A stretch of DNA of 64,000 nt from Escherichia coli (lineage in GTDB: Bacteria > Pseudomonadota > Gammaproteobacteria > Enterobacterales > Enterobacteriaceae). A model generated the notes under the pieces. That model was not told the DNA's origin. It was given only the letters and a program-made list of their open reading frames with translations, and did no database searches. Both the position numbers and the translations under genes were made by a program. Numbering within the stretch: the stretch's first letter is position 1; each line of letters begins with the position of its first letter. Below are positions 58,758-63,793 of this stretch, in pieces. The stretch lies in assembly GCF_003790525.1 (NCBI RefSeq), contig NZ_CP033635.1; one strand, written 5' to 3'.

Positions 58758-58833
58758 TGGTGGGTCGTGCAGGATTCGAACCTGCGACCAATTGATTAAA
58801 AGTCAACTGCTCTACCAACTGAGCTAACGACCC
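58758..58833 (-). tRNA. lysV: tRNA-Lys (anticodon UUU)
   Basis: Reverse complement is a 76-nt cloverleaf ending CCA with anticodon loop CUUUUAA. Confidence 0.95.
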
Positions 58834-58837
58834 GAAG

Positions 58838-58913
58838 TGGTGGGTGATGACGGGATCGAACCGCCGACCCCCTCCTTGTAAGGGAGGTGCTCTCCCAGCT
58901 GAGCTAATCACCC
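58838..58913 (-). tRNA. valY: tRNA-Val (anticodon UAC)
   Basis: 76-nt tRNA, reverse complement GGGTGATTAGCTCAGCTGGGAGAGCACCTCCCTTACAAGGAGG...CACCCACCA. Confidence 0.95.
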
Positions 58914-58959
58914 ACTTCGGTACTTCACATTTTTACAAGAAATTTAGCTGGCGAGAAAG

Positions 58960-59035
58960 TGGTGGGTGATGACGGGATCGAACCGCCGACCCCCTCCTTG
59001 TAAGGGAGGTGCTCTCCCAGCTGAGCTAATCACCC
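58960..59035 (-). tRNA. valX: tRNA-Val (anticodon UAC)
   Basis: Identical copy of the tRNA-Val sequence. Confidence 0.95.
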
Positions 59036-59079
59036 ACTTCTCAATTTCTTGCTACACGGCGGAGACTACATAAAGTAGT

Positions 59080-59155
59080 TGGTGGGTGATGACGGGATCG
59101 AACCGCCGACCCCCTCCTTGTAAGGGAGGTGCTCTCCCAGCTGAGCTAATCACCC
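59080..59155 (-). tRNA. valU: tRNA-Val (anticodon UAC)
   Basis: Identical copy of the tRNA-Val sequence; first gene of the operon. Confidence 0.95.
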
Positions 59156-59413: not shown

Positions 59414-60829
59414 ATGAAAATCAAAACTCGCTTCGCGCCAAGCCCAACAGGCTATCTGCACGTTGGCGGCGCGCGTACTGCTCTTTACTCTTGGCTTTTT
59501 GCACGTAACCACGGCGGTGAGTTCGTGCTGCGTATTGAAGACACCGATCTTGAGCGTTCCACGCCGGAAGCTATCGAAGCCATTATGGATGGCATGAACT
59601 GGCTGAGCCTGGAGTGGGATGAAGGTCCGTACTACCAGACCAAACGTTTTGATCGCTACAATGCGGTGATCGATCAGATGCTGGAAGAGGGCACTGCTTA
59701 TAAATGCTATTGCTCTAAAGAGCGCCTGGAAGCGCTGCGCGAAGAGCAAATGGCGAAAGGTGAGAAGCCGCGTTATGACGGTCGCTGCCGCCACAGCCAT
59801 GAGCATCACGCTGATGATGAACCGTGTGTCGTGCGTTTTGCTAACCCGCAGGAAGGTTCTGTTGTTTTTGACGATCAGATCCGTGGTCCGATCGAATTCA
59901 GCAACCAGGAGCTGGATGATCTGATTATCCGTCGTACCGATGGTTCTCCAACCTATAACTTCTGTGTAGTGGTTGACGACTGGGATATGGAAATCACGCA
60001 CGTCATCCGTGGTGAAGACCATATCAACAACACGCCGCGCCAGATCAACATCCTGAAAGCGCTGAACGCGCCCGTACCGGTTTACGCGCACGTTTCTATG
60101 ATCAACGGTGATGACGGTAAAAAACTGTCCAAACGTCACGGGGCGGTCAGCGTAATGCAGTATCGTGATGACGGTTATTTGCCAGAAGCACTGCTGAACT
60201 ATCTGGTGCGTCTGGGCTGGTCCCACGGCGATCAGGAAATCTTCACTCGTGAAGAGATGATCAAATACTTCACTCTGAATGCCGTCAGCAAATCTGCCAG
60301 TGCGTTCAACACCGACAAGCTGCTGTGGCTAAACCATCACTACATTAACGCACTGCCGCCGGAGTATGTGGCTACCCACTTACAGTGGCACATCGAGCAG
60401 GAAAATATCGATACCCGTAACGGCCCGCAACTGGCTGATCTGGTAAAACTGCTGGGTGAACGCTGCAAAACGCTGAAAGAGATGGCACAGACTTGCCGTT
60501 ATTTCTACGAAGATTTTGCTGAGTTCGATGCCGACGCCGCGAAAAAACATCTGCGTCCGGTAGCGCGTCAGCCGCTGGAAGTGGTTCGTGACAAACTGGC
60601 CGCGATTACTGACTGGACCGCTGAAAACGTTCATCACGCTATTCAGGCGACGGCGGATGAGCTGGAAGTGGGTATGGGTAAAGTTGGTATGCCGCTGCGT
60701 GTCGCCGTTACCGGTGCGGGGCAGTCTCCGGCACTGGACGTTACCGTTCACGCGATCGGTAAGACCCGCAGTATCGAGCGTATCAACAAAGCGCTGGCTT
60801 TTATTGCGGAACGCGAAAACCAGCAGTAA
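59414..60829 (+). CDS. gltX: Glutamyl-tRNA synthetase
   Basis: 471-aa ORF ([31 protein letters not shown]) with HIGH-type and KMSKS (KLSKR) motifs. Confidence 0.95.
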
Positions 60830-60848
60830 TTAGCGCATAAAAGATAAA

Positions 60849-60880
60849 CGGCAGGAGAAATACCCCTGCCGTTTTTTATT
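60849..60880 (+). terminator. gltX rho-independent terminator
   Basis: Stem cggcagg / cctgccg followed by ttttttattt. Confidence 0.75.
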
Positions 60881-60949
60881 TATCCGGTGCGCCGTAAAAC
60901 CCCGTCCTTCAGGGCGGGGATATAAGGCGCGGTTTTCCACCTGACCAGG

Positions 60950-61363
60950 TGTTTGCTGTTGTTCAATGTATTGGCGGATGACGGATATTGGCGCACCTCC
61001 GCAGCTACTGGCAAAATAGCCAGGACTCCACAAAACGCCTTTGTAGTAATACCTGACTGCAATATCTGGTCGATCTCGTCGCAGTCACCTACCCGATACG
61101 CCTTTGAGGCTGTTTACCAGACTGGATATCGCCAGTTTGGGAGGATAGTTAATTAACAAATGGACGTGATCTGGTTCGCCATCCATTTCAACCAGTTCAG
61201 CTTCAAAATCAGCACATACATTTGAAAAGTAAGTGCGTAGTTTTTCTGTCGCGTCATGGTCAAAAATCTGGCGTCGGTATTTGGGACAAAGACCAGGTGA
61301 ACATGCATCAGGAAAACACAATGCCTTCCACGCCGGATATCGGTTTCTTTTTTCACAGACCAA
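60950..61363 (-). pseudogene. tnpA: IS200/IS605 tnpA (HuH Y1 transposase), frameshifted
   Basis: N-terminal part in frame of 61085-61363 (…CPKYRRQIF…HVHLLINYPP…LKGVSGR*); C-terminal part (LWSPGYFASSCGGAPISVIRQYIEQQ) in a different frame at about 60950-61033. Confidence 0.65.
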
Positions 61364-61378
61364 AATATAATTTGACCT

Positions 61379-62589
61379 GTGAAACGACTACAGGCATTTA
61401 AATTCCAGTTAAGACCCGGTGGTCAACAGGAGCATGAAATGAGGCGCTTCGCAGGCGCATGTCGTTTCGTTTTCAATCGTGCTCTGGCGCTTCAGAATGA
61501 GAATCATGAGGCCGGTAATAAATACATCCCTTACGGGAAAATGGCTTCCTGGCTGGTTGAGTGGAAAAACGCCACTGGAACGCAATGGCTTAAAGATTCT
61601 CCCTCACAGCCATTGCAACAGTCACTGAAAGACCTTGAGCGGGCTTACAAAAACTTCTTCCAGAAGCGGGCTGCTTTTCCCCGATTCAAAAAGCGGGGAC
61701 AGAATGATGCATTCCGCTACCCGCAGGGCGTTAAGCTCGATCAGGAAAACAGCCGTATTTTTCTGCCGAAACTGGGCTGGATGCGCTACCGGAACAGCCG
61801 TCAGGTCACGGGTGTTGTGAAAAATGTCACGGTCAGCCAGTCCTGCGGTAAGTGGTACATCAGTATTCAGACAGAAAGTGAAGTATCAACTCCGGTTCAC
61901 CCTTCAGCATCAATGGTCGGGCTGGATGCCGGCATGGCTGAACTTGCCACGCTGTCAGATGGGGCACAGTCTTTGAGCCTGTAAACAGTTTTCAGAAAAA
62001 CCAGAAGACGCTGGCGAGACTTCAGCGACAGTTAAGCCGCAAGGTCAAATTCAGCAATAACTGGAAGAAGCAGAAACGCAAAATACAGCGACTGCATTCC
62101 CGTATCGCAAATATCCGCAGGGACTACCTTCACAAAGTCACAACGACCGTCAGCAAAAACCACGCAATGATAGTCATTGAGGATTTGAAGGTCAGCAACA
62201 TGTCAAAGTCAGCAGCGGGTACGGTCAGCCAGCCGGGGCGCAATGTCCGGGCAAAATCAGGTTTAAACCGTTCGATACTGAATCAGGGCTGGTATGAAAT
62301 GCGCCGCCAGCTTGAGTACAAGCAGCTCTGGCGTGGCGGTCAGGTGCTTGCTGTTCCGCCAGCGTACACAAGCCAGCGTTGCGCGTGCTGTGGTCATACA
62401 GCGAAAGAAAATCGCCTGTCACAAAGTAAATTCAGATTCCAGGTATGTGGATATACAGCGAACGCCGATGTAAACGGCGCTCGTAACATTTTAGCGGCGG
62501 GGCACGCCGTTCTTGCCTGTGGAGAGATGGTGCAGTCAGGCCGCCCGTTGAAGCAGGAACCCACCGAAATGATTCAGGCGACAGCCTGA
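61379..62589 (+). pseudogene. tnpB: IS605-family tnpB (RuvC-like RNA-guided nuclease homologue), single frameshift
   Basis: Frame 1: 61379-61984 (…VGLDAGMAELATLSDGAQSLSL*); continues in -1 frame from 61981 to 62589 (VNSFQKNQKTLARLQRQL…IEDLKV…CACCGHT…[10 protein letters not shown]); shift at agc-ctg-taa, consistent with a 1-bp deletion. Confidence 0.7.
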
Positions 62590-62628
62590 ACGTAGCAGGG
62601 ATCCTCGTCCTTCAGGGCGTGGAGGATG

Positions 62629-63021
62629 TCAAGCTGATTCATCTATGTCGAGACGAGCAAGGAAATTACGAATTCCTTCGCGTGACAAAAATTGCGCAAC
62701 TTTTTCCCGCTCACTGTGAGTCATGTTGTCTATTGCGCTGATGATTTGCCGATAAGCAGGAGTGCGAATCCCCGGTGCGTATTCGGCAAGGGGTTCTTCG
62801 GCTTCCAGAAGCATCGGCGTGTTATGGAAGGCTGGCGTGTTCTGAATAAACTCGCAAACTTGCGTATCGACCAGAATAAGTCTGGCACGACCGCCTTTCA
62901 CGCCGGGAAATTTTTCCGTTTTCCAGCCTTTTTCTCTGATCCAACGGTTAACAGTTTGTTTAGCCACACCGAGGCATTCAGCCAGTTCTTCGGTGGTCAT
63001 TTTATTGCGTAATCTTTTCAT
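62629..63021 (-). CDS. yfeD: Small putative DNA-binding protein (DUF1323-like)
   Basis: 130-aa ORF (MKRLRNKMTTEELAECLGVAKQTVNRWIREKGW); paralogous to adjacent yfeC. Confidence 0.8.
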   Translation of the reverse strand: MKRLRNKMTTEELAECLGVAKQTVNRWIREKGWKTEKFPGVKGGRARLILVDTQVCEFIQNTPAFHNTPMLLEAEEPLAEYAPGIRTPAYRQIISAIDNMTHSEREKVAQFLSREGIRNFLARLDIDESA

Positions 63022-63022
63022 A

Positions 63023-63382
63023 TTATTTGCTATCGCGAATCCCTAAGCGTTGTAATAATCCGATAATCCCTTCCCGCAGAAGCAAGGATGTAAACTGTTT
63101 TTGTTCAACTGGCGTCATCTCTTTCGCCAGTGTCACCAGCAACACTTCAAGCGGCGCATCACCAGACAGGGCAGGCGTTTCTCCCTGACTTTCCGGACGT
63201 TCAGCATTGCGAATATATTCACGAACCTGTTCATTGACGTGAACCAGTCGGGCTTTGCCACCCTGGACGCCTGGTTTTGGTGACGTTGTCCAGCCTTCCT
63301 TGCGTACCCATTTATTAATGGTCTGGCGGCTATAGCCGGTCAGTCTGGCAAGTTCATCTGGCGTCATCCTCTCCTTGAACAT
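63023..63382 (-). CDS. yfeC: Small putative DNA-binding protein (DUF1323-like)
   Basis: 119-aa ORF (MFKERMTPDELARLTGYSRQTINKWVRKEGW). Confidence 0.8.
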   Translation of the reverse strand: MFKERMTPDELARLTGYSRQTINKWVRKEGWTTSPKPGVQGGKARLVHVNEQVREYIRNAERPESQGETPALSGDAPLEVLLVTLAKEMTPVEQKQFTSLLLREGIIGLLQRLGIRDSK

Positions 63383-63602: not shown

Positions 63603-63678
<76 letters not shown>

Positions 63679-63717
63679 AATTTTGCACCCAGCAAAATTT
63701 GTACGTAAACGCATCGT

Positions 63718-63793
<76 letters not shown>

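Follow-up and report, generated by a model that had tools for sequence, protein, structure and literature searches.

Three described systems stand close to the element reported here: IS608 of Helicobacter pylori, IS200 and ISDra2. The element lies between gltX and yfeD, at positions 60884-62632 of a 64,000 nucleotide stretch of Escherichia coli DNA (NCBI RefSeq assembly GCF_003790525.1, contig NZ_CP033635.1), which is called the window in the following. It is almost certainly a copy of IS609, a named insertion sequence (IS) of E. coli that belongs to the IS200/IS605 family, and this copy is decaying and non-autonomous; we put the probability of this reading at about 95%. The element is thus already known, a catalogued IS that is decaying in this lineage, and not a new kind of system.

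TnpB of ISDra2 with its omega RNA is the paradigm of the RNA-guided nucleases. The guide comes from the flank of the element and the target-adjacent motif (TAM) is expected to equal the transposon target, which is TTGAT for ISDra2 and would be TTAT for the IS609 copy. IS609 shares with ISDra2 the helix-turn-helix, OrfB_IS605/RuvC and zinc ribbon parts of TnpB as well as a structured RNA over the tnpB 3' end and the right end, but the nuclease gene of the window copy is a pseudogene. IS200 belongs to the same family as IS609 and likewise inserts beside terminator hairpins; it differs in carrying only tnpA, in its length of about 0.7 kb and in its ends, which are unrelated to those of IS609.

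The tnpA gene is divergent from tnpB in the IS609 copy, unlike the arrangement in IS608. In IS608, the four bases 5' of the left hairpin specify the target, with AAAG reading TTAC (PMC3201880). IS608 and the IS609 copy both have imperfect subterminal hairpins in the same orientation, a right cleavage site TCAA that ends 10 nt 3' of the hairpin foot, and a left cleavage and target tetranucleotide which lies outside the element, is recognised by the tetranucleotide 5' of the left hairpin and is not duplicated. They differ in the target and its guide (TTAC with AAAG in IS608, TTAT with AAAA in IS609) and in the left spacer, which is 19 nt in IS608 and 16 nt in the IS609 copy.

Insertion site and exact ends

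The genes gltX (59414-60829, plus strand) and yfeD (62629-63021, minus strand) are convergent, and yfeC lies beyond yfeD. An inverted repeat at 60846-60874 forms the terminator hairpin common to both genes. This hairpin is part of the flank and not of the element, and it is unchanged at the empty sites. On the plus strand it is followed by the T-run TTTTTTATTTAT, which closes with TTAT at 60880-60883. The terminator scan gave only the minus-strand reading of this hairpin, and the plus-strand gltX terminator was unlisted.

In K-12 and MS 198-1 the site is uninterrupted and gltX adjoins yfeD as ...TTTTTTATTTAT/GCTGATTC. In a longer reading the K-12 site is ...CCTGCCGTTTTTTATTTAT/GCTGATTC..., and MS 198-1 has TCTGATTC past the junction. 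The empty-site junction is TTTAT/GCTGATTC, where the slash marks the exact place of the insert. Comparison with these empty sites defines an insert of 1749 bp (60884-62632) immediately 3' of the TTAT, the plus strand of which is the active 'top' strand. No target duplication was found when the occupied window was compared with the empty sites in K-12 and MS 198-1. Insertion 3' of a specific short motif without target duplication is characteristic of the IS200/IS605 family. The original prediction had set the boundaries at 60881-62630 on the gltX terminator T-run; the insert of about 1.75 kb and its position on the T-run were right, and the coordinates were off by 2-3 bases.

At all six independent IS609 loci TTAT stands directly 5' of the left end, CCGGTG..., and all six copies end in ...GGAGGATGTCAA, after which the sequences are unrelated. 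The last four bases of the element, TCAA (62629-62632), are the right cleavage site, 10 nt 3' of the hairpin foot. We also collected relatives with one genome per species, which gave 80 loci with TnpB identities of 58-95% from Enterobacterales, Burkholderiales and other Proteobacteria. Of these loci, 66 end in GAGGA(T/C/A)G(T/C)CAA, mostly as ...GGAGGATGTCAA; the similarity to them and to the other copies stops exactly at the right end.

Identity of the element as IS609

Over 1748-1749 bp the window copy is 97.8% identical at the DNA level both to the IS609 of K-12 and to a copy in strain F8111-1SC3. The K-12 copy lies beside ydcO and consists of a tnpA pseudogene and insQ (ydcM); IS609 is the single IS200/IS605 element of MG1655 (PMC5009759). 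The F8111-1SC3 copy encodes an intact transposase of 143 amino acids, which RefSeq names 'IS609 family transposase', and an intact TnpB of 402 amino acids. Gene order, the divergent arrangement of tnpA and tnpB and the ends (TTAT/CCGGTG ... GATGTCAA/) are the same in K-12 and the window, as are two tnpA changes, a TGA at codon 96 and a CAG that replaces the reference stop codon. The K-12 copy differs in its locus and in its intact tnpB, against which the window copy has a +GG frameshift and Cys353Phe. The window tnpA additionally lacks its ATG and one base, and position 62605 in its right hairpin is T instead of the A of K-12. In strain 165 (NZ_CP020509.1) the whole stretch is 100% identical and both genes are annotated as pseudogenes.

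Profile searches gave strong matches for both genes, as the original prediction of divergent tnpA-like and tnpB-like frames of the IS200/IS605 family had proposed. The raw tnpA frames (minus strand, 60941-61371) match NF033573 transpos_IS200 with E-values of 7.5e-23 and 3.4e-7 and Pfam Y1_Tnp with 7e-22; a Y1 (HUH) transposase of the IS200 type is thus recognisable from the remnant frames of the pseudogene. The two halves of tnpB (plus strand, 61379-62589) match NF040570 guided_TnpB with 9e-47 and 5.5e-62 as well as the Pfam families HTH_OrfB_IS605, OrfB_IS605 and Cas12f1-like_TNB. Nothing contradicts the identification as IS609, and the appropriate annotation of the region is that of an IS609 remnant containing two pseudogenes. 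Its significance beyond correct annotation is small.

Distribution and evolution of IS609 copies in E. coli

We searched 5426 complete E. coli genomes. The 1.8-kb stretch was found in 5014 of them and at many loci, with a median of two places per genome and up to nine, and all those places are annotated as IS200/IS605 tnpA plus 'RNA-guided endonuclease InsQ/TnpB'. No further IS609 copies were found within the 64-kb window. A query of the joined flanks was covered in one piece, which indicates the empty site, in about 4890 genomes, and the left junction was found in 533. The gltX/yfeD locus can be used as a presence/absence marker: about 10% of the complete E. coli genomes have it occupied, and 30 of these have the +GG allele. 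An intact 143 amino acid IS609 TnpA is common in public E. coli data and is present on at least 1000 public contigs.

We sampled nine IS609 copies, seven of which have a full-length tnpB; the exceptions are the window copy, with its frameshift, and the CB7286 copy, which has a stop at codon 399. The tnpA gene has its normal stop codon in one of the nine copies and an internal stop or frameshift in five. The ratio of non-synonymous to synonymous polymorphism (pN/pS) is 0.16-0.32 between intact tnpB genes, 0.31-0.39 in comparisons with the window tnpB and 0.4-2 for tnpA, the last based on few substitutions. From these sequences, purifying selection seems to maintain tnpB of IS609 throughout E. 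coli without a working transposase, with relaxed constraint on tnpA, which hints at a function of TnpB that is independent of transposition.

The three copies at the gltX/yfeD locus differ from each other by 36-45 bases, and the window copy differs from the copy at yedK by 30. Variable sites are shared in a mosaic among the loci, and copies at the same locus have their closest relatives elsewhere. The TGA at tnpA codon 96, for example, occurs at the gltX, ydcO and yeaQ loci, the loss of the ATG is common to the window and yedK copies, and the variants at 61598, 61600 and 61603 are common to the O157, EC556 and DUF3251 copies. A single ancient, vertically inherited insertion is not supported, given that divergence at the locus exceeds the difference to yedK and given the mosaic sites. 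The mosaic suggests gene conversion between copies; at the locus itself either gene conversion or repeated insertion is likely, and the data do not separate the two.

The flanking sequence of gltX 3' end and yfeD (60634-60883 and 62633-62882) falls into two deeply diverged haplotypes in E. coli, with 2107 records being 95-99% identical to the window and 3105 records 80-90% identical (K-12 type, 89.4%).

Lesions in tnpA and tnpB

Both genes had been predicted to be disrupted, and mapping against the intact F8111-1SC3 copy located the lesions. The tnpA pseudogene has four: the start codon is lost (ATG to ATT at 61369-61371), one base is deleted between 61284 and 61285 at about codon 30, ahead of the HUH motif, codon 96 (61086) is changed from TTA to TGA, and CAG (60943) stands at the position of the reference stop codon. 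The last of these changes is common to most E. coli copies.

In the tnpB (insQ) pseudogene, the sequence after Gly195 is out of frame owing to +GG at 61961-61962; this separates D183 from E267 and D363, although the codons for all three RuvC residues remain. The substitution Cys353Phe (62438 G>T) removes a zinc-ribbon ligand in the second CxxC; the four cysteines are among the critical residues of TnpB (PMC12781874). Sibling copies have the complete RuvC D-E-D triad and CxxC...CxxC zinc ribbon in a single frame, and the window copy does not. Exact matches to the +GG allele exist in 30 genomes, SMS-3-5 included. Because these 30 independent complete genomes carry the identical allele, the frameshift is not a sequencing error. 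The remaining matching records number 4816, and 4763 of them are 90-95% identical, as expected for copies without +GG. Given the four lesions in tnpA and the frameshift and zinc-ligand change in tnpB, the window copy makes neither protein.

Subterminal hairpins and choice of target

Each end of the element has a subterminal hairpin, both in the same orientation, and there are no terminal inverted repeats, as is usual in the family. The hairpins were predicted to be near-identical and in fact form a direct repeat with 19 of 21 bases identical (60900-60920 and 62603-62623). The left hairpin, CCCCGTCC-TTCA-GGGCGGGG (60900-60919), lies inside an outer stem (60889-60893/60926-60930). It is intact, identical to that of the F8111-1SC3 copy, and folds with -13.8 kcal/mol (z -3.2; 1 of 200 shuffles as good). 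The right hairpin, CCTCGTCC-TTCA-GGGCGTGG (62603-62622), contains a T·T mismatch (62605/62620), and because of the T at 62605 its fold is weak in the window copy (-6.4 kcal/mol, z -0.96). With A at this position, the hairpins of the K-12 and F8111-1SC3 copies reach -10.5 and -7.7 kcal/mol (z -3.9 and -2.1). The T is also present in the yedK copy and, together with a further C>A change, in the O157:H7, EC556 and yeaQ copies, so that we rejected the A>T change as a lesion unique to the gltX locus. As the T·T variant is found in the copies at yedK and yeaQ, elements that carry it may still be mobile. Compensatory changes were seen in seven of the nine right-hairpin pairs among 47 relatives.

Directly 5' of the foot of the left hairpin lies the tetranucleotide AAAA (60896-60899), which by the IS608 rule is predicted to pair with the target TTAT. 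This guide would explain why IS609 landed after the TTAT of the terminator T-run. By analogy with IS608, GGAT (62599-62602), 5' of the foot of the right hairpin, is the putative right guide; relatives have GGAT or GAAT at this place. The TTAT at 60880-60883 would also be the expected TAM of TnpB.

To compare guides and targets, we used the 38 relatives with a recognisable left end and set the four bases 5' of the hairpin against the four bases 16 nt upstream. AAAG occurs with TTAC in 15 relatives, AAAA with TTAT in 7 and CAAA with T(T)GAT in 12, the last being a match by class; four relatives are exceptions or register shifts. Guide and target classes are thus matched in 34 of the 38 relatives, in agreement with the IS608 rule. 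The three target classes among the IS609 relatives (TTAC, TTAT and T(T)GAT) follow the left guide tetranucleotide, and the subset with the CAAA guide uses the ISDra2-like motif T(T)GAT.

An IS200-type element of about 0.7 kb with an intact tnpA sits in the same gltX/yfeD terminator in NZ_OZ547043.1 (544-1261 of that locus stretch). It is inserted between the T6 run and ATTTAT, equivalent to 60877/60878 of the window and 6 bases upstream of the IS609 insertion point, and shows that another member of the family has hit this hairpin independently.

Predicted omega RNA scaffold

We aligned the last 220 nt of 47 sequences (TnpB identity 58-95%). The consensus has 31 pairs in six helices over the tnpB 3' end and the right end, and several of these helices are within coding sequence, including 62495-62509. 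In the window copy, the predicted omega RNA scaffold covers 62448-62632 (plus strand), that is, about the last 190 nt of the element. Compensatory changes were found in 17 of the 31 pairs. Of the cells, 95.9% were paired, against 84.2% in shuffles, and double changes were seen in 128 cells, against 33. In 500 shuffles the observed values were never reached, and slid controls were 37-58% paired. The window copy retains 30 of the 31 consensus pairs. A conserved structured RNA at this position is expected for TnpB and its omega RNA, and the covarying helices are consistent with the guide-RNA scaffold known for TnpB. In some relatives the right hairpin and one helix of the omega RNA (alignment columns 130-155) contain large insertions. 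Together, the comparative data illustrate for the IS609 clade the known rules of guide-specified target choice and omega RNA covariation.

Proposed mechanism

Elements of the IS200/IS605 family move by strand-specific, single-strand 'peel and paste' transposition. By analogy with IS608, a dimer of the Y1/HUH transposase TnpA would bind both subterminal hairpins on the single-stranded top strand and locate the cleavage sites by means of the tetranucleotide 5' of each hairpin, which pairs with them. A single-stranded circle, in which ...GATGTCAA is joined to CCGGTGCG... (TCAA to CCGGTG), would be excised and inserted 3' of TTAT without target duplication; the TTAT used here would be the last four bases of the gltX/yfeD terminator T-run. 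From what is known of other TnpB proteins, tnpB would encode an RNA-guided RuvC nuclease, with an omega RNA made from the tnpB 3' end and the right end and a guide portion from the flank. In the window the guide would be formed by GCTGATTCATCTATGT (62633-62648, plus strand), which is antisense to the last yfeD codons. The TnpB complex would then recognise TTAT plus GCTGATTCATC..., i.e. the empty site.

Alternative readings

We rejected the view that the region is normal intergenic sequence, conserved and with open frames that arose by chance. The site is empty in about 90% of E. coli genomes, the profile E-values reach 1e-62 and the same 1.75 kb is present at many other loci; the original prediction of an inserted element had named the presence of this sequence in all relatives as a result that would speak against it. 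We also rejected programmed ribosomal frameshifting as a way to join the two tnpB halves into a functional gene. The downstream 208 codons do stay open in the other frame, but this is the only point in its favour, and we give it practically no chance: +GG is limited to 30 of the 5426 genomes, the sampled copies at the same locus (O157:H7 and EC556, in which tnpB is intact) and at five other loci lack it and all encode the full 402 amino acid protein except CB7286, and the zinc-ligand cysteine is lost too. Some points nevertheless weigh against parts of the reading as a dead IS609 copy with a TnpB-type RNA. The missing reference stop codon may not alone inactivate TnpA, and the function of the right hairpin with its T·T mismatch is putative in this copy. 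No Rfam family reached its gathering score; RAGATH-18 scored 25-29.5 bits against a threshold of 44.9, and HgcC and sot0042 matched below threshold at the same place, so we dropped an Rfam name for the RNA. The covarying terminal hairpin could equally reflect a DNA hairpin bound by TnpA as an RNA stem, and we infer omega RNA expression and the TAM of this copy only by analogy.

The ends and the RNA scaffold of the IS609 remnant are nearly intact, and by analogy with IS608 the use of its ends in trans is plausible. It is nevertheless unlikely that this coding-dead copy is excised and reinserted by the TnpA of another, intact IS609 of the same cell and is thus still mobile and not a fixed fossil. 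TTAT, the left guide AAAA, the left hairpin, the right guide GGAT and TCAA are all intact, elements with the T·T variant may have transposed to the yedK and yeaQ loci, intact TnpA is common on public contigs and the identical genome NZ_CP020509.1 has two further IS609 places. On the other hand, there were no new IS609 insertions in K-12 mutation-accumulation lines (PMC5009759), tnpA is intact in one of the nine sampled copies only, the right hairpin is predicted to be weak, and gene conversion could explain the shared variants instead. Co-option by the host is very improbable. Here, the omega RNA, loaded on TnpB of a sibling copy, would cut the empty gltX/yfeD allele, or the insertion would change yfeD 3'-end formation, as it separates yfeD from its terminator. 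The retained scaffold, the purifying selection on tnpB but not tnpA of other copies and the displaced terminator hairpin argue for it, but the window tnpB is frameshifted, its higher pN/pS is as expected for relaxed constraint, and 90% of E. coli genomes do without the insertion. As a speculative part of this, quite unlikely in our view, the gene-dead copy may still make an omega RNA guided by the yfeD flank, with which TnpB of other copies could cut an incoming empty allele (TTAT plus GCTGATTCATCTATGT). If this were true, the omega RNA would protect the remnant's own retention when an empty allele enters by recombination.

Effect of the insertion on yfeD

The stop codon of yfeD in the window is TGA (62629-62631, minus strand), the complement of the terminal TCA of the element, and is thus supplied by the end of IS609. 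At empty sites the stop codon is TAA and overlaps the TTAT target. The insertion exchanged the stop codon from TAA to TGA and left the protein end unaltered (...DESA in both the window and K-12), because the opposite strand of both TTAT and the terminal TCAA contains a stop codon. IS609 therefore provides the stop codon and 3' end of yfeD in this lineage, and owing to the insert the terminator hairpin is now 1.75 kb from the stop codon.

Neighbouring genes

The genes yfeD and yfeC (62629-63382, minus strand) are adjacent, paralog-like and encode small helix-turn-helix regulators, with stop and start codons that almost abut. Arrays of tRNA genes flank the locus at 58761-59155 (minus strand) and 63603-63790 (plus strand). 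Upstream of gltX there are four tRNA genes (one Lys and three Val in the annotation of strain 165), and beyond yfeC there are two identical tRNA-Ala genes.

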